Virus record (IMG/VR): IMGVR_UViG_2541047120_000017
Direction: 5' to 3' (one strand)
DNA: 5,340 bases
Source: a virus
Lineage: Duplodnaviria; Heunggongvirae; Uroviricota; Caudoviricetes
Part shown: positions 379 through 4,661 of the stretch, in pieces
Numbering within the stretch: the stretch's first letter is position 1
Layout: each line of letters begins with the position of its first letter
Translations under genes and position numbers: made by a program
Notes under the pieces: model-generated
Seen by the model: only the letters and a program-made list of their open reading frames with translations
Told to the model about the DNA's origin: nothing
Databases searched by the model: none

Positions 379-666
379 TCAGATAGAGAAGGGAAATTGT
401 CGCCGAGAATGTGTCACGCTTACAATCTCAATGCTTGAAGCAGCTACTCTGTACAGGATTATGTAGTTAGGGTGGGTCACGATCTCTCTCAATCCAGAAA
501 CCCGTTCGCTTGGTGGATATAAGTACGGATGCTCAGATAGAGGTAATACCGATGTTTCAATGCGTATTTTTAGTCTACGTGCTGCCGGTGGGTTCTCCTT
601 GGCGATGTAAGTTATGATCTGGCGCAAATCATCGCGAGCAGACGGTAGCCATAAAATGGGTAACAT
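379..666 (-). CDS. parE: ParE/RelE-family toxin of a type II toxin-antitoxin system (ParE2-like, 95 aa)
   Basis: ORF track 379..666. Motifs LWLPSARDDLRQIITYIA, LPLSEHPYLYPPSERVSGLREIV and HPNYIILYRV...IEIV fit the ParE fold. Its ATG overlaps the stop of the upstream small ORF (minus-strand TAATG at 668-664). Confidence 0.85.
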   Translation of the reverse strand: MLPILWLPSARDDLRQIITYIAKENPPAARRLKIRIETSVLPLSEHPYLYPPSERVSGLREIVTHPNYIILYRVAASSIEIVSVTHSRRQFPFSI

Positions 667-857
667 TACTCGCTCTTGTTAGTTACAGCAATTTGAGCAA
701 TAAGATTTTCCATTTCAGCCATTACCTCGTCATGTGGAATTGCGGGGCGAGTGTCTGCAAGGCTTGACGTTACTTTAGTGCGCAACCATTCGTTGTAACT
801 GTTTTCTTGTTCGGTAGTTTCGAATTCTGAAACTATCGGAGAAAGGGCTGTACCCAT
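666..857 (-). CDS. paaA: Small acidic antitoxin (PaaA2-like, 63 aa) partnered with the ParE toxin
   Basis: ORF track 666..857. GAGGAG lies 7 nt upstream of the ATG at 857. The stop is coupled to the toxin start. Size and the segment SEFETTEQENSYNEWLRTKV...RPAIPHDEV match the recalled PaaA2 antitoxin. Confidence 0.75.
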   Translation of the reverse strand: MGTALSPIVSEFETTEQENSYNEWLRTKVTSSLADTRPAIPHDEVMAEMENLIAQIAVTNKSE

Positions 858-884
858 GGCATAACTCCTCTTCTTGTACTGTGG

Positions 885-1286
885 TCACGCCCGGCGGCTT
901 TTTTGTGCCGCCAGCCACCTAGCAATGGTTTCTTCCATTGATTTTTTCTTGTCTTTGATTTCTTGAAGCATTTTTTCTTGGTCTTCCTCAGGAAACGCAC
1001 TAAAAGCTTGGAGCAGTTCGCGTTGGCGAGGACCAATTTTCATCGTGTCAGGGGTGAAAATTTGCTCACACTCTTCAGGAGGCAATAAAAACCAATGCAA
1101 TGGATGCCCTGAAACCTCAACCAGTTTATCCAAACTTGAGGCTTTAGGTGTAGCCTTACCGCTGACCCATTGTTGAACAGTTTGTTGTGTCACACCAATT
1201 CTACGGGCAAGCTCAGCCTGGCTCCATCCAGTTTCCTGAAGAAGCTTGCTGATTCTGTACATAGATACTTCTAGGGCGCTCATCAT
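885..1286 (-). CDS. paaR: DicA/cI-type HTH repressor without a peptidase domain (PaaR2-like regulator; likely prophage maintenance repressor), 133 aa
   Basis: ORF track 885..1286. XRE-type HTH (SQAELARRIGVTQQTVQQWVSGK) and a C-terminal part (RELLQAFSAFPEEDQEKMLQE) parallel DicA architecture. It is divergent from the Cro-like gene. Tandem ATGATG start with no SD; alternative start at 1283. Confidence 0.85.
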   Translation of the reverse strand: MMSALEVSMYRISKLLQETGWSQAELARRIGVTQQTVQQWVSGKATPKASSLDKLVEVSGHPLHWFLLPPEECEQIFTPDTMKIGPRQRELLQAFSAFPEEDQEKMLQEIKDKKKSMEETIARWLAAQKSRRA

Positions 1287-2089: not shown

Positions 2090-2599
2090 ATGAGTAATGA
2101 CAAAAAATTGACACTGAGCGTTTACGAAAACAGTCCGCACATCTGGCGTGGCGGTTTATCTGATGTGGAGCTGGCAGAGTGGTTGATACATAAAGCTAAT
2201 GCGCTGCTCTGGCGTTTGTCAGCCAGAGAACAGCGCAAGGAAACCAGAATAAAGCTGGCTGATGCAGAAGCGTGTGCCGGGCTTATTGAGGATTATACAA
2301 ATCTTGGTATTTCTTCAGCAGAGAGTGATCCCATTCAGCCTCTGAGCAGGGAGTCAATCCAGCACGCTGGTTGTATGGCACATCTTGTAACTGCTCGTCA
2401 ACATGAGGTGGGTATTGGATCACTTCCGGCGGGATATTCGCTGATTCCAGAGCTGGTTGAAGCAAGAAAATCAGTTCAGAAAAAGAGAGATGACGCACTT
2501 CAATTATTGAGAGAGCACTATGGCGCGATACCAGAATGCGAACAGCGTCGATACCCTGAAGGTTATGAATGGATGCAGTCTCTTTTTGAAGTTCGCTAA
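2090..2599 (+). CDS. Hypothetical protein of unknown function (169 aa), start chosen at MSNDKK
   Basis: In-frame ATG at 2090, 13 nt after the ydaT-like stop. Hand-counted first-codon-position base use is coding-like (G about 34 percent), and CAG>CAA, AAA>AAG. The track ORF 2039..2599 would overlap ydaT. It competes with an antisense ORF at 2283-2738. Confidence 0.55.
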   Translation: MSNDKKLTLSVYENSPHIWRGGLSDVELAEWLIHKANALLWRLSAREQRKETRIKLADAEACAGLIEDYTNLGISSAESDPIQPLSRESIQHAGCMAHLVTARQHEVGIGSLPAGYSLIPELVEARKSVQKKRDDALQLLREHYGAIPECEQRRYPEGYEWMQSLFEVR

Positions 2600-2816
2600 T
2601 CAATATGTCGAGACGAAGGTATGTTTCGGCGCGCAGCCAGGCTCTGTAATCCGGGAGCATTTCGGGGCTGTTACACCAGCGGTTTGTTGCTGCAACATTT
2701 AATACATGAGCCTGATAAAGGCTTTTCAAAAAATACATGTCGAACCTCCTCTGGTTCTGTCGATTGGGAACCACAGATTATATCCGGAGGAAGGTTCGGC
2801 ACCAGATGAGGTAGCC

Positions 2817-3908
2817 ATGCGTGATTACGCAAAAGTTTCTCCGCGATTCTGGCTGGGAGAAACGGGGAGAGAACTTAGAAAGGCGGGTGCAGAAGCGCAA
2901 GTTGTTGCTTTTTACCTGATGACATCCCCTCACGCAAATATGCTGGGTTTGTATTACCTGCCAGTTTTATACCTTGCTCATGAAACCGGGCTTGGTCTGG
3001 AAGGGGCTTCAAAGGGGCTTAAAAGGGCTGTTGAAGCTGGTTTTTGTAGCTATGACCATGATGCAGAGATGGTCTGGGTCCATGAAATGGCAGCCTGGCA
3101 GGTTGGGGAAACGTTGAAGCCTGGCGATAACCGTTGTGCAGGTGTCAGGAATGAGTATGCATCATTACCTGAAAACGCTTTTCTGTCAGTGTTTTACGAC
3201 AGATATAAAACGGATTTCCATCTGGATGTGAGGCGGAATAATAGCCGAAATTCGGTAAGGGGCTTCGAAGGGGCTTTTAAGGGGCTTCGAAGCCAAGAAC
3301 AGGAACAGGAGCAGGAGAAAGAACAGGAACAGGACAAAAACACTATGGTTCATGGCAAAAAAAACACCACGAACCAGGCAGGGGATGTTCAGACCGTCAA
3401 TCCTGGTCAGCCAGCAGGCACGACACCGGAAGCCGATTCGGGCGCTGTGCAGCAGGTGATGACCGCAGGGTCGGAGCAATCACACCAACTGCAGCAGCCT
3501 GAAGCCGATTCCGCCATTCAGCGGGAAGCCGATCGGGTAGTCCCGGAAAGCACCGGGCAGTCTGTGGGACGAGTGGATTATCCGGATGTGTTCGAACAGG
3601 TCTGGCGGGAATACCCGTTGCGTGCTGGGGCAAACCCGAAGAAATCCGCTTTCAGTGCCTGGAAGGCCAGATTGCGCGAGGGGGTGCCACCAGAGACCAT
3701 GCTGGATGGTGTGAGGCGTTACGCGAGATACCTGGCGGCGACCGGGAAAGCGGGAACGGAATTTGTTCAGCGAGCGACGACGTTTTTTGGGCCGGACCGG
3801 AATTTTGAAAACCCCTGGTTGCTCCCGGTAAGCGGCACGAACAACCAGCGTTGTGTGAATCATATTTCTGAACCGGATACCGAAATTCCGCCGGGATTCA
3901 GGGGGTGA
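2817..3908 (+). CDS. Replication initiation protein (lambda O-like role; occupies the position just upstream of the DnaC-like gene), about 363 aa
   Basis: ORF track 2706..3908. Start preferred at the ATG at 2817 because GAGG lies 5 nt upstream, whereas the ATG at 2706 has no SD. N-terminal domain, low-complexity E/Q-rich linker and C-terminal domain. Iteron-like DNA repeats lie inside the gene. Immediately followed by the helicase-loader gene. Confidence 0.8.
   Translation: MRDYAKVSPRFWLGETGRELRKAGAEAQVVAFYLMTSPHANMLGLYYLPVLYLAHETGLGLEGASKGLKRAVEAGFCSYDHDAEMVWVHEMAAWQVGETLKPGDNRCAGVRNEYASLPENAFLSVFYDRYKTDFHLDVRRNNSRNSVRGFEGAFKGLRSQEQEQEQEKEQEQDKNTMVHGKKNTTNQAGDVQTVNPGQPAGTTPEADSGAVQQVMTAGSEQSHQLQQPEADSAIQREADRVVPESTGQSVGRVDYPDVFEQVWREYPLRAGANPKKSAFSAWKARLREGVPPETMLDGVRRYARYLAATGKAGTEFVQRATTFFGPDRNFENPWLLPVSGTNNQRCVNHISEPDTEIPPGFRG
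2988..3030. repeat. Iteron-like cluster A: GGGCTT-type motifs at 2988, 3004, 3014 and 3025 (AAGGGGCTTC / AAAGGGGCTT / AAAAGGGCTG)
   Basis: Direct repeats at 10-11 bp spacing inside the initiator coding sequence. Successive copies are read in different codon frames. Confidence 0.4.
3257..3289. repeat. Iteron-like cluster B: three tandem 11-bp units AAGGGGCTTCG / AAGGGGCTTTT / AAGGGGCTTCG
   Basis: Exact tandem repeats with 11-bp period. The three copies are translated in three different frames (RGF / EGAF / KGLR), so the repeat is a DNA-level feature. Confidence 0.5.
3297..3338 (+). repeat. Hexanucleotide tandem repeat (GAACAG)n, 7 units with variants, encoding an (EQ)n linker
   Basis: Units GAACAG GAACAG GAGCAG GAGAAA GAACAG GAACAG GACAAA read directly from the sequence. 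In frame with the initiator gene. Confidence 0.7.
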
Positions 3909-3914
3909 TGTGGC

Positions 3915-4661
3915 ATGAAAAACATTGCGGCAGCCGGGGTTCTTGAACGTATTCGCAGACTTGCACCACAGGCGTCGGTTCCACCGTACCGGACGGTGGA
4001 GGAGTGGCGGGAATGGCAACTTGCTGAAGGACGAAAACGCAGCGAGGAGATTAACCGCCAGAATCACCAGTTGCGGGTGGAAAAAATCCTGAATCGTTCG
4101 GGCATCCAGCCTCTGCACAGCAAATGCTCGTTTGCGAATTATCAGGTGCAGAACGACGGGCAAAAATACGCGCTGAGCCAGGCCAAATCCATAGCTGACG
4201 AACTGATGACCGGGTGCACGAATTTTGTGTTCAGCGGTAAAACCGGCACCGGGAAAAATCACCTTGCAGCGGCGATGGGTAACCGGCTGATGGCGAAGGG
4301 GCGCAGCGTGATTATCGTCACCGTGTCTGATGTCATGAGCGTGTTGCATGACAGCTACGACAACGGCAAATCCGGGGAAAAATTTTTACAGGAGCTTTGC
4401 AGTGTTGATTTGCTGGTCCTGGATGAAATAGGCGTTCAGCGGGAGACGAAAAACGAGCAGGTGGTATTACACCAGATAATTGATCGCCGGACAGCATCAC
4501 TGTGCAGTGTCGGGATGTTAACAAACCTGAATCATGCCGCAATGAGTACACTTCTTGGTGAGAGGATTATGGACCGCATGACCATGAACGGTGGTCGATG
4601 GGTGACGTTTAACTGGGATAGCTGGCGTCCAAATGTCAGCAATATGAGGGTTGTGAAGTAA
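3915..4661 (+). CDS. dnaC: DnaC-type AAA+ helicase loader (phage replication protein; YdaV-position), 248 aa
   Basis: ORF track 3915..4661. Walker A FSGKTGTGKNHLAAA, with the GKN variant characteristic of DnaC. Walker B LLVLDEIG. C-terminal WVTFNWDSWR resembles the DnaC C-terminus. SD GGGGGTGA upstream. Confidence 0.9.
   Translation: MKNIAAAGVLERIRRLAPQASVPPYRTVEEWREWQLAEGRKRSEEINRQNHQLRVEKILNRSGIQPLHSKCSFANYQVQNDGQKYALSQAKSIADELMTGCTNFVFSGKTGTGKNHLAAAMGNRLMAKGRSVIIVTVSDVMSVLHDSYDNGKSGEKFLQELCSVDLLVLDEIGVQRETKNEQVVLHQIIDRRTASLCSVGMLTNLNHAAMSTLLGERIMDRMTMNGGRWVTFNWDSWRPNVSNMRVVK

Follow-up and report, generated by a model that had tools for sequence, protein, structure and literature searches.

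A repeat cluster in the predicted recognition-helix codons of a prophage replication gene, possibly the distal part of a two-part origin

In an E. coli O157:H7 prophage, the gene of a putative replication initiator contains two clusters of the same 9-bp repeat. The upstream cluster (cluster A) lies within the codons of predicted helix 3 of the DNA-binding domain, is conserved as DNA among relatives and changes its motif together with the downstream cluster (cluster B). On balance, the comparison of relatives and the structure prediction lean towards a two-part origin with cluster A as its distal part; the origin would lie inside the initiator gene, and the gene's own product would bind cluster A. 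Positions refer to the 5340-bp stretch of DNA analysed (the window), in which the following features are discussed.

2817-3908, + strand: putative replication initiator gene, 363 aa; ATG at 2817 with GAGG 6 nt upstream; RefSeq WP_001205823.1 has this start
2817-3248, + strand: N-terminal predicted winged-helix DNA-binding domain, residues 1-144 (AlphaFold2, pLDDT 82.7)
2988-2993, + strand: GGGCTT, first copy in the initial annotation, with 0.20 and 0.22 bit at its third codon positions (2990, 2993)
2994-3035, + strand: codons of helix 3 (residues 60-73, GLEGASKGLKRAVE), at the recognition-helix position of the winged-helix fold in the secondary structure of the model; contains cluster A
3000-3020, + strand: cluster A core, two exact AAGGGGCTT sites (3001-3009 and 3012-3020), encoding E62 G63 A64 S65 K66 G67 L68
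3022-3037, + strand: degenerate third unit of cluster A, AAAGGGCTGTT, with a GAAGC half-site (3033-3037), within the 42-nt repeat shared with cluster B
3257-3294, + strand: cluster B, three exact AAGGGGCTT sites (3257, 3268, 3279) and an AAGCC half-site (3290-3294), in a disordered linker
3290-3341, + strand: purine-rich (CARGAR)n tract, AAGCCAAGAACAGGAACAGGAGCAGGAGAAAGAACAGGAACAGGACAAAAAC, encoding SQEQEQEQEKEQEQDKN, at the junction between protein modules; recognised by AT skew and in relatives
3346-3376, unstranded: inverted repeat TGGTTCATGG ... CCACGAACCA, directly after the purine tract
3867-3905, + strand: C-terminal tail SEPDTEIPPGFRG, 13 residues, almost the same as in the C-terminus of DnaT, the primosomal protein of E. 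coli
3915-4661, + strand: DnaC-like helicase loader gene, directly downstream (NCBIfam PRK12377, Pfam IstB_IS21, PHROG 50)

The position of the gene upstream of the loader, its PHROG matches, the predicted winged helix and the DnaT-like tail together point to a replication initiator. The PHROG families matched are 1701 (E 1e-148) and 3729 (E 1e-125), both of uncharacterised replication proteins, and a match to PHROG 6251 ‘replisome organizer’ is weak (E 2e-4). Pfam gave no family for the protein at E<=0.01, NCBIfam gave none beyond a match to the DnaT tail, and a sequence-profile search of the PDB gave no match. The longer open reading frame from 2706 is unused: RefSeq starts at 2817 and all homologues begin with MRDY. 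In the AlphaFold2 model, helices at residues 25-36, 50-57 and 60-73 and strands at 45-47, 77-80 and 85-88 agree with the winged-helix order helix-strand-helix-helix-strand-strand. The top Foldseek matches are all winged-helix proteins (MarR, CRP, GntR and RepA_N initiators), none of them significant (best E 0.05). The N-terminal domain matches 4083 representatives of 50%-identity clusters at E<=1e-3. It is followed by a linker (residues 144-161, pLDDT <50) and, from ~3337, by a shared C-terminal module; ‘protein O’ occurs solely as a label in the annotation of relatives of this module. A PDB sequence search with the tail found 6aep, 2ru8 and 9zbt at E 0.008-0.03, with hits confined to the last 21-25 residues. 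The NCBIfam DnaT model NF002770 scored 17.7 bits against a cut-off of 201 (E 0.002) and covered residues 377-400 of the 400-aa translation from 2706. Some relatives are annotated as DnaT; the protein here matches that family in the tail only and fails against the full-length model. The loader scored 509 bits with PRK12377 (cut-off 389) and 299 bits with the DnaC equivalog, which is below the cut-off of 357.

The window contains five copies of the heptamer GGGGCTT, where 0.80 would be expected on both strands of the 5340 bp, and none of 200 shuffles reached five. Two copies (3003, 3014) are in cluster A and three (3259, 3270, 3281) in cluster B, with none elsewhere in the window. The extended 9-bp unit AAGGGGCTT likewise has five exact copies, found only at 3001, 3012, 3257, 3268 and 3279. 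The unit can be written as AAG-SSS-CTT, with palindromic arms around a G/C centre. It recurs with a period of 11 bp, about one helical turn, and more than 70 relatives keep the same phasing. The window thus contains, as iteron arrays do, several helically phased copies of one short sequence (AAGGGGCTT). Because of the 11-bp period, successive copies fall in different frames (GAA GGG GCT TCA AAG GGG CTT). Clusters A and B are 226 bp apart from end to start and 256 bp from start to start. A 42-nt direct repeat (2996-3037 and 3252-3293, 79% identical) makes cluster A a paralogue of cluster B. In two complete phage genomes (43.6 and 45.4 kb) and a 12.6-kb O157 prophage stretch, the GGG/CCC-centred site is confined to the initiator gene or to the sequence directly upstream of it.

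The initial annotation had described cluster A as a further set of GGGGCTT-type motifs, in shifting reading frames within the coding region of the N-terminal domain and about 230 bp before cluster B. All of its coordinates agree with the sequence, the cluster does lie in the codons of that domain, and the frame shifts and the gap agree with the period and distance given above. It counted four copies at spacings of 10-16 bp. The four are present at 2988-2993, 3003-3009, 3014-3020 and 3025-3030 (the last as GGGCTG), spaced by 16, 11 and 10 bp, but only the middle two are exact and conserved. At the first copy relatives use GGA TTG, GGC TTA and similar codons; with third-position information of about 0.2 bit it is probably a chance occurrence and no part of the element. 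The fourth copy belongs to the third unit, which is weakly conserved. The GAAGC half-site at 3033-3037, which the initial annotation did not include, is conserved, and with the third unit it mirrors the end of cluster B.

Cluster A lies 184 bp into the coding region, inside the codons of the folded N-terminal domain, and cluster B lies in the linker. We compared 77 relatives from several bacterial phyla, down to ~45% protein identity, among which synonymous sites are saturated. In these relatives the four degenerate codons of cluster A are GGG in 96%, GCT in 91%, GGG in 93% and CTT in 93%. GAA encodes E62 in all 71 sequences and AAG encodes K66 in all 68, and E73, in the GAAGC half-site, is GAA in 63 of 66 sequences. 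The codon entropy of the four degenerate codons is 0.29-0.51 bit, compared with 1.6-2.4 bit at other conserved G, A, L, P, T and V codons. By third-position information, the 7-codon window 3000-3020 ranks first of 163 (1.45 bit; median 0.53), and in the 77 relatives no stretch of the N-terminal domain is under stronger synonymous constraint than cluster A. Its core copies vary less than the copies of cluster B, be it in sequence, number, position or orientation. The initial annotation had named a lack of DNA-level conservation in relatives as a sign against its reading of cluster A; the opposite was found in the 77 relatives. These comparisons and the joint motif change described below support the view that cluster A, like cluster B, is an element at the DNA level and not a by-product of coding. 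Conservation of this strength at the DNA level is unusual for phage DNA.

Exceptions were found among distant relatives. Four lack cluster A (L144, L157-L159) and three keep a single copy (L145-L147), so cluster A is not indispensable everywhere. L157 has two separate arrays in the linker instead, a single case that hints at a need for two clusters. In L151 and L154, enlarged cluster A arrays insert residues into the helix region, which suggests that selection on the DNA can override the protein.

Cluster B is present in nearly all relatives, mostly in inverted form (AAGCCCCTT). Its orientation in 73 loci is inverted in 47, direct in 11, this window included, and mixed in eight; Klebsiella, Citrobacter and Fraca provide examples of the direct form. 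Inversion switches the encoded peptide between EGASKGL and EAPSKPL, and by this comparison the motif is kept as DNA and not as peptide. Divergent initiator subfamilies have another motif, which has changed in both clusters together. In L162-L166 (Janthinobacterium, Kaistia, Paraburkholderia), cluster A consists of two copies of GAAAGGGTT and cluster B of two to three copies of AACCCTT or AACCGTT, with an AAACC anchor replacing AAGCC. In L161 both clusters contain GAAACCSTTTC. The repeats thus resemble iterons also in being conserved as DNA and in changing motif along with the cognate initiator subfamily. Gene conversion between the clusters, rather than a common binder, could in part lie behind the shared change. 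In the subfamilies with AAGGGTT or GAAACCCTTTC sites, the sites are still in the helix-3 codons. The distance from cluster A to cluster B in relatives is 254, 266, 278 or 302 nt, in steps of 12 nt. We rejected helical phasing of this distance as evidence for looping: it is set by protein length and the number of cluster B units. Because the size of the protein domain largely determines it, a constant distance is no separate indication of looping.

The purine-rich tract beside cluster B is a candidate DNA-unwinding region. The AT skew in 3290-3370 is 0.72-0.87 with a GC content of 40-50%, so the region is purine-skewed and not markedly AT-rich. Almost all relatives have the tract, though its length varies and KEKE, QKQK or LELE versions occur now and then, and S159 is AGC in 65 of 65 sequences. 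A scan of 2600-3500 for promoters and terminators stayed at chance level except for the hairpin at 3346-3376. In the alignment, Shigella phage 75/02 Stx has a similar inverted repeat, with changes on both arms. There is no IHF consensus between the clusters that could help looping, and DnaA boxes are at chance level, none of them notable. A programmed frameshift at CTT AAA AGG was discarded: a canonical slippery heptamer is missing, and the site is not kept in relatives, which read CTT CAA AGG.

We infer the following arrangement for the two-part origin. The winged-helix N-terminal domain of the initiator probably recognises the 9-bp AAG-SSS-CTT unit. Cluster B would be the proximal array, with three sites and a half-site abutting the purine-rich tract, which would open. 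The phage DnaC-like loader, recruited by the C-terminal domain and DnaT-like tail of the initiator, would then place host DnaB on the opened tract. Initiator molecules on cluster A, ~245 bp upstream, may come together with the proximal complex if the DNA in between is looped or wrapped, and this distal complex may stabilise or shape the initiation complex. Transcription from the early promoter would also run into an occupied cluster A, because the cluster lies 184 bp into the coding region, and a side effect on expression of the initiator itself is therefore possible.

More tentatively, and with slightly less than even confidence, we propose that the predicted DNA-reading helix of the initiator is encoded by the initiator's own binding sites, the 21 nt for E-G-A-S-K-G-L being two of the sites that helix 3 recognises. 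A mutation in cluster A would then alter reader and site at once. Evolution of origin specificity would be coupled to the protein in a way undescribed for lambda, P1, SPP1 or plasmid initiators, and the overlap of helix 3 and site would have been kept in a family of more than 4000 sequence clusters from several bacterial phyla, even when the motif changes. The origin would then be a genuinely two-part, looped structure.

Cluster A may instead be bound by the initiator and act negatively, as an intragenic roadblock that limits transcription of the initiator and loader genes, or by titration or by pairing with the proximal array, and be unneeded for firing. Control iterons in plasmids restrain firing in this manner. 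The evidence for initiator binding serves this explanation as well as the two-part origin, and the cluster sits inside the gene on the early transcription path. Any self-control would have to be intragenic, because the promoter region contains no motif copy. A few relatives without cluster A keep cluster B, which fits an accessory role. Nothing in the data separates a negative from a positive role, but the strongly conserved number and position in nearly all relatives and the relocated second array of L157 are no less well explained by a structural requirement, and we consider a negative site unlikely. Alternatively, the two clusters could pair as RNA or single-stranded DNA in a long-range stem, for translation control or as a structural signal, with the joint motif change as covariation. 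Such a stem would have ~20 potential base pairs in most relatives, where clusters A and B are exact reverse complements of each other, and the divergent subfamilies retain complementarity (AAGGGTT versus AACCCTT). Against this, cluster A is still frozen at synonymous sites where cluster B is direct, as here and in 10 other loci, or mixed, as in eight. The predicted RNA fold of 2985-3300 (z = -3.6) derives from local self-pairing of each cluster, as any palindromic array would show, with no pairing between A and B. The constant orientation of cluster A has a simpler reason: it cannot flip because helix 3 would acquire prolines from a CCC centre. A stem between the clusters is already contradicted for this window, and as an account of cluster A we regard it as highly improbable.

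Two further explanations deny cluster A a function. The initial annotation had suggested that it might be a degenerate duplicate of the origin, and a decaying, functionless copy would be in line with the 79% identity of the 42-nt repeat and the degenerate third unit. Synonymous drift would then be expected, yet the core units are the most constrained DNA of the domain down to 45% protein identity, and they are steadier than cluster B in orientation and number. Unless the alignment-based statistics are an artefact, the conservation refutes a decaying copy, which we rate a shade less credible even than the stem. The repeat could also be a by-product of codon preference and the peptide EGASKGL, which is indeed conserved and part of a structured helix. 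However, other Gly, Ala and Leu codons of the same genes vary freely while these four stay GGG, GCT, GGG and CTT, and at a distance of 256 bp the 9-mer is found again although the peptide there is not conserved. The hosts, moreover, span a wide range of G+C content, from ~39% to above 65% (Acinetobacter and Burkholderiales genomes). The codon data refute this explanation, and of all those considered we give it the least credence.

Lambda and its relatives offer one of the closest known parallels to the two-part origin. In lambda and the lambdoid Stx phages 933W and P27 the origin, ori-lambda, is inside gene O, and the Stx phages have two extra distal iterons, weakly bound and needed for replication (PMC7466680). 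These provide a precedent for a required distal site. Here as there, the origin would lie inside the initiator gene, where the N-terminal DNA-binding domain adjoins a C-terminal domain for recruiting the helicase-loading partner; cluster B occupies the linker, with the C-terminal junction at ~3337. Repeats, here putative initiator sites, beside a strand-asymmetric tract, here a candidate for easy opening, and a helicase loader gene next in order are also shared. In contrast, the initiator is not a homologue of lambda O (it has no Pfam family and belongs to other PHROG families), and its loading partner is of the DnaC type and not lambda P. Lambda has four or more contiguous 19-bp iterons in one array, whereas here two arrays of two to three 9-bp sites, with an 11-bp period, are ~245 bp apart and the distal one is in the codons of the folded DNA-binding domain. 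The adjacent tract is AT-rich in lambda and purine-rich here, with 40-50% GC.

In the Bacillus phage SPP1, oriL is located within gene 38, which encodes the replisome organiser gp38, and a second repeat set forms oriR (PMC6316719). SPP1 resembles the arrangement here in having direct repeats for the origin-binding protein in that protein's own gene, beside an unwinding element, with loader and helicase genes downstream, and in having a second set of the same repeats. Its second set, however, is a separate origin ~13 kb away, whereas here one gene contains both sets at a distance of ~250 bp, and apart from the weak PHROG 6251 match we detected no sequence relationship. The same initiator-binding repeat in two separated arrays is also a feature of P1 and P4, although their proteins are unrelated and their arrays either lie outside the initiator coding sequence or are separated by kilobases. 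In P1, incC and incA flank repA, and incA is a control locus; P4 has ori and crr, and crr is required in cis. E. coli DnaT is comparable through the near-match of the C-terminal tail and the dnaC-like gene that follows, as dnaC follows dnaT. The match is limited to the tail, and DnaT has neither an origin-binding winged helix nor iterons.

An origin of initiator-binding repeats inside the initiator gene is textbook knowledge, and three aspects are distinct here: the initiator belongs to a large family that has no Pfam family and for which we found no experimental study, the putative origin is split into two clusters, and the codons of the predicted recognition helix contain the distal cluster. 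Our literature searches found no published description of this arrangement, and no binding, footprinting or origin-activity work on the initiator family. In papers, AAGGGGCTT and its variants occurred in unrelated primer and gene sequences only, and further searches returned only the lambda and SPP1 analogues. The family includes Eru4-type Shiga-toxin phages such as Shigella phage 75/02 Stx. Two papers on Stx-phage replication regions (PMC8044961, PMC8951638) place phage 75/02 in Eru4 and mention neither iterons nor an origin.

The natural variants could be used for studying how the specificity of the initiator and the sequence of the origin evolve jointly; among them are proximal arrays of direct, inverted or mixed orientation, two alternative motifs, and distal clusters that are enlarged or absent. 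In many prophages for which current annotation gives only ‘hypothetical’ or ‘DNA-binding protein’, the repeat signature shows where the origin probably lies. In a plasmid collection 10 records match, none of them a studied replicon; several are chromosome-sized or very large, and the matches in such large ‘plasmid’ records may be prophages.

Cluster A lies in the inferred replication-initiator gene and consists of the repeat pair at 3001-3009 and 3012-3020, a weak third unit and a GAAGC half-site (3033-3037). This cis element is real and deeply conserved. In a 77-sequence codon alignment, conserved Gly, Ala, Leu, Pro, Thr and Val codons elsewhere in the domain served as control; the aligned sequences are related to one another, and these codons from the same gene take account of that kinship only informally. 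The control codons have an entropy of 1.6-2.4 bit, indicating that synonymous sites are saturated. The values for cluster A are as follows.

Codon use in cluster A (residue, codon, frequency, codon entropy)
G63, GGG, 96%, 0.29 bit
A64, GCT, 91%, 0.51 bit
G67, GGG, 93%, 0.36 bit
L68, CTT, 93%, 0.40 bit

Glu62 is GAA in 71/71 sequences, Lys66 is AAG in 68/68 and Glu73, in the half-site, is GAA in 63/66, while both codons occur in the remaining Glu and Lys columns. Third-position information in a sliding 7-codon window peaks exactly at residues 62-68 (nt 3000-3020; 1.45 bit versus a median of 0.53). The next peaks are cluster B, the three repeats at 3257, 3268 and 3279, and its AAGCC half-site, or anchor (3290-3294). 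Judged by these alignments, cluster A is conserved as DNA, beyond the protein. The initial annotation had made its reading depend on such conservation in relatives, and it is present, with frozen synonymous codons and the top third-position peak.

The full repeat unit is AAGGGGCTT, with palindromic AAG...CTT arms, a G/C triplet in the centre and an 11-bp period. This period is not divisible by 3, so each copy is in a different reading frame from the one before, as the initial annotation had noticed. The core GGGGCTT occurs five times in the window, always on the plus strand (3003, 3014, 3259, 3270 and 3281), versus 0.8 expected, and none of 200 shuffles reached five. Segments 2996-3037 (terminal GAAGC included) and 3252-3293 form a direct repeat with 79% identity, so cluster A is built like cluster B; it comprises two good units, one degenerate unit and the half-site. 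All four copies originally assigned to cluster A exist, with those at 2988 (GGGCTT) and 3025 (GGGCTG) being weaker. The copy at 2988 is probably a chance match, because third positions 2990 and 2993 carry only 0.2 bit each in the codon alignment.

In E. coli O157:H7 strain Z1486 (L167 among the L-numbered loci of relatives), exactly one 11-bp cluster A unit is deleted (compare window 3012-3022). The deletion frameshifts the initiator gene, a pseudogene according to RefSeq; the tandem repeats are thus a hotspot for slippage, and the gene directly bears the cost. In strain RM6067W, the purine tract is longer by one GAACAG unit.

The N-terminal domain of the initiator matches 4083 representatives of 50%-identity clusters (E<=1e-3), with hosts in Enterobacterales, Acinetobacter, Burkholderiales, Legionellales and alphaproteobacteria, and MAGs labelled Planctomycetes, Acidobacteriota and others. 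We compared six phage loci (Klebsiella, Shigella 75/02 Stx, Acinetobacter, two coliphages and Ralstonia) and 79 bacterial-genome loci, one per species; 80 viral-contig loci, nearly all close copies, were left out. Almost all relatives carry two AAGGGGCTT at gene offsets 185 and 196, and a further two or three copies at offsets of ~430-465, followed by AAGCC and a (CARGAR)n tract. The GGG/CCC-centred site is confined to the initiator gene or just upstream in three longer sequences, namely two complete phage genomes and 12.6 kb of the O157 prophage. Cluster A arrays are expanded in L151 and L154, adding residues to the protein. A few distant loci (L144 and L157-L159) lack cluster A; in L157, the linker holds two separate arrays instead. 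Acinetobacter phage YMC/09/02/B1251 (L171) has an extra AAGCCCCTT at 5611-5619, 38 bp upstream of the initiator start; its deposited annotation starts the gene at 5916 and omits the N-terminal 89 codons (5649-5915), cluster A among them.

The cluster B copies are all inverted in 47/73 loci, all direct in 11, including the window, and mixed in 8. The inverted unit, AAGCCCCTT, is the exact reverse complement. At the protein level, cluster B alternates between EGASKGL and EAPSKPL, and GGC or GCC centres are also seen (L154 and others). At the sequence level, this shows that in cluster B the motif matters and the peptide does not. No complete flip of cluster A was seen in the main family; a simple reason is that a CCC centre would put prolines in a helix, whereas cluster B lies in a disordered linker. 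As read from the divergent loci below, both clusters switch motif together.

Motifs in divergent loci (protein identity, cluster A, cluster B)
L162-L166: ~30-34%; GAAAGGGTT x2; AACCCTT or AACCGTT x2-3, anchor AAACC
L161: ~30%; GAAACCSTTTC x3; GAAACCSTTTC x4, mixed orientation

In L088-L166 (gene offsets 185-480), cluster A and the AAGCC anchor are 254, 266, 278 or 302 nt apart, in steps of 12. Gain or loss of an 11-bp unit seems to be accompanied by that of one extra base, keeping the reading frame. Because the protein and the number of cluster B units fix this distance, looping cannot be deduced from spacing.

In the most probable reading, the origin lies inside the gene and has two parts, of which cluster A is the distal one. 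Other origins inside genes are ori-lambda (gene O) and SPP1 oriL (gene 38) (PMC7466680, PMC6316719). By analogy, cluster B and the purine-rich tract (3290-3341) would form the core origin, and cluster A would be a distal site pair for the same protein. Its likeliest role would be to help assemble a larger complex of initiator and DNA in which ~245 bp is looped or wrapped, possibly with a secondary effect on transcription through the initiator gene. A useful precedent is provided by Stx phages, in which distal iterons are bound weakly and are still required (PMC7466680). Our literature search found no experiment on this initiator family.

Cluster A could also act purely negatively, as a roadblock or by titration, which we consider less likely. 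A long-range stem between the two clusters would fit most relatives, but it fails in the window and in the remaining loci whose arrays are direct or mixed, since cluster A stays frozen there all the same; we regard it as highly improbable. That cluster A is a degenerate, decaying duplicate of the origin, the alternative offered in the initial annotation, is contradicted by its synonymous-site conservation in relatives, seen in both codon entropy and third-position information. The same two measures contradict the repeat as a by-product of coding.

The purine-rich tract has an AT skew of up to 0.87. A purine-rich hexamer repeat that encodes QEQEQE makes up the linker after cluster B in nearly all of the loci L088-L166. 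Some lineages have KEKEKE, QKQKQK or LELELE in its place, which suggests that what is conserved is repetitive DNA with a strand bias, not any one peptide. C-terminal modules (DnaT-like, Phg_2220_C or partners of a primase-helicase) are also exchanged at this tract, which serves as the junction. Right after it, an inverted repeat (3346-3376) has 10-bp arms, TGGTTCATGG and CCACGAACCA, around an A8 run; Shigella phage 75/02 Stx has a similar one with both arms changed. This repeat may belong to the origin as an additional element, or form a terminator-like hairpin on the minus strand.

The initiator starts at ATG 2817, not 2706, with the MRDY start found in RefSeq and every homologue. No Pfam family was found for the protein, which matches the replication-protein PHROG families 1701 (E 1e-148) and 3729 (E 1e-125). 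An AlphaFold2 model of residues 1-161 (pLDDT 82.7, pTM 0.76) has a winged-helix order: helix 25-36, strand 45-47, helix 50-57, helix 60-73 and strands 77-80 and 85-88, with residues 144-161 disordered. Cluster A (codons 62-68) is therefore predicted to lie in helix 3, the recognition-helix position. All structural matches are DNA binders with a winged helix, plasmid RepA_N initiators among them, and none is significant (best E 0.05). The C-terminal half, from ~3337, is a separate module, 91-92% identical to 'protein O' or 'primosomal protein I' genes of other coliphages, which do not share the N-terminal half. The C-terminus, SEPDTEIPPGFRG (3867-3905), nearly matches in its last 13 residues that of E. 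coli DnaT, SEPDNHIPPGFRG. An initiator gene with a DnaT-like tail followed by a dnaC-like gene resembles the chromosomal dnaT-dnaC pair.

The window comes from a lambdoid prophage of E. coli O157:H7 and represents its immunity and early-replication region. Its segment 2700-3345 is present in 477 of 5426 complete E. coli genomes, at an identity of at least 99% in 436. The genes are arranged as follows.

379-1286, minus strand: ParE toxin, PaaA2 antitoxin and HTH repressor (885-1286) genes
1395-1667: YdaS-like Cro
1651-2076: YdaT-like protein
2090-2599, plus strand, and 2283-2738, minus strand: disputed overlapping ORF pair
2817-3908, plus strand: initiator gene, between the disputed pair and the helicase loader
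3915-4661: DnaC-like helicase loader
after the helicase loader, last in gene order: DUF1627 gene

The plus-strand ORF of the disputed pair matches PHROG 8304 (E 4e-120), and the minus-strand ORF, the one annotated in RefSeq, matches the NCBIfam ECs1072 family (E 2e-30); likely at most one is a real gene. The 15-mer ACAATAAAAAACTGT has four copies in the window (0.02 expected), arranged as two inverted pairs at 288-327 and 1323-1361. The divergent promoter region that separates the repressor from the Cro-like gene holds one pair, and the other is beyond the ParE toxin gene. The pairs resemble two operator sites on either side of the repressor-antitoxin-toxin module.
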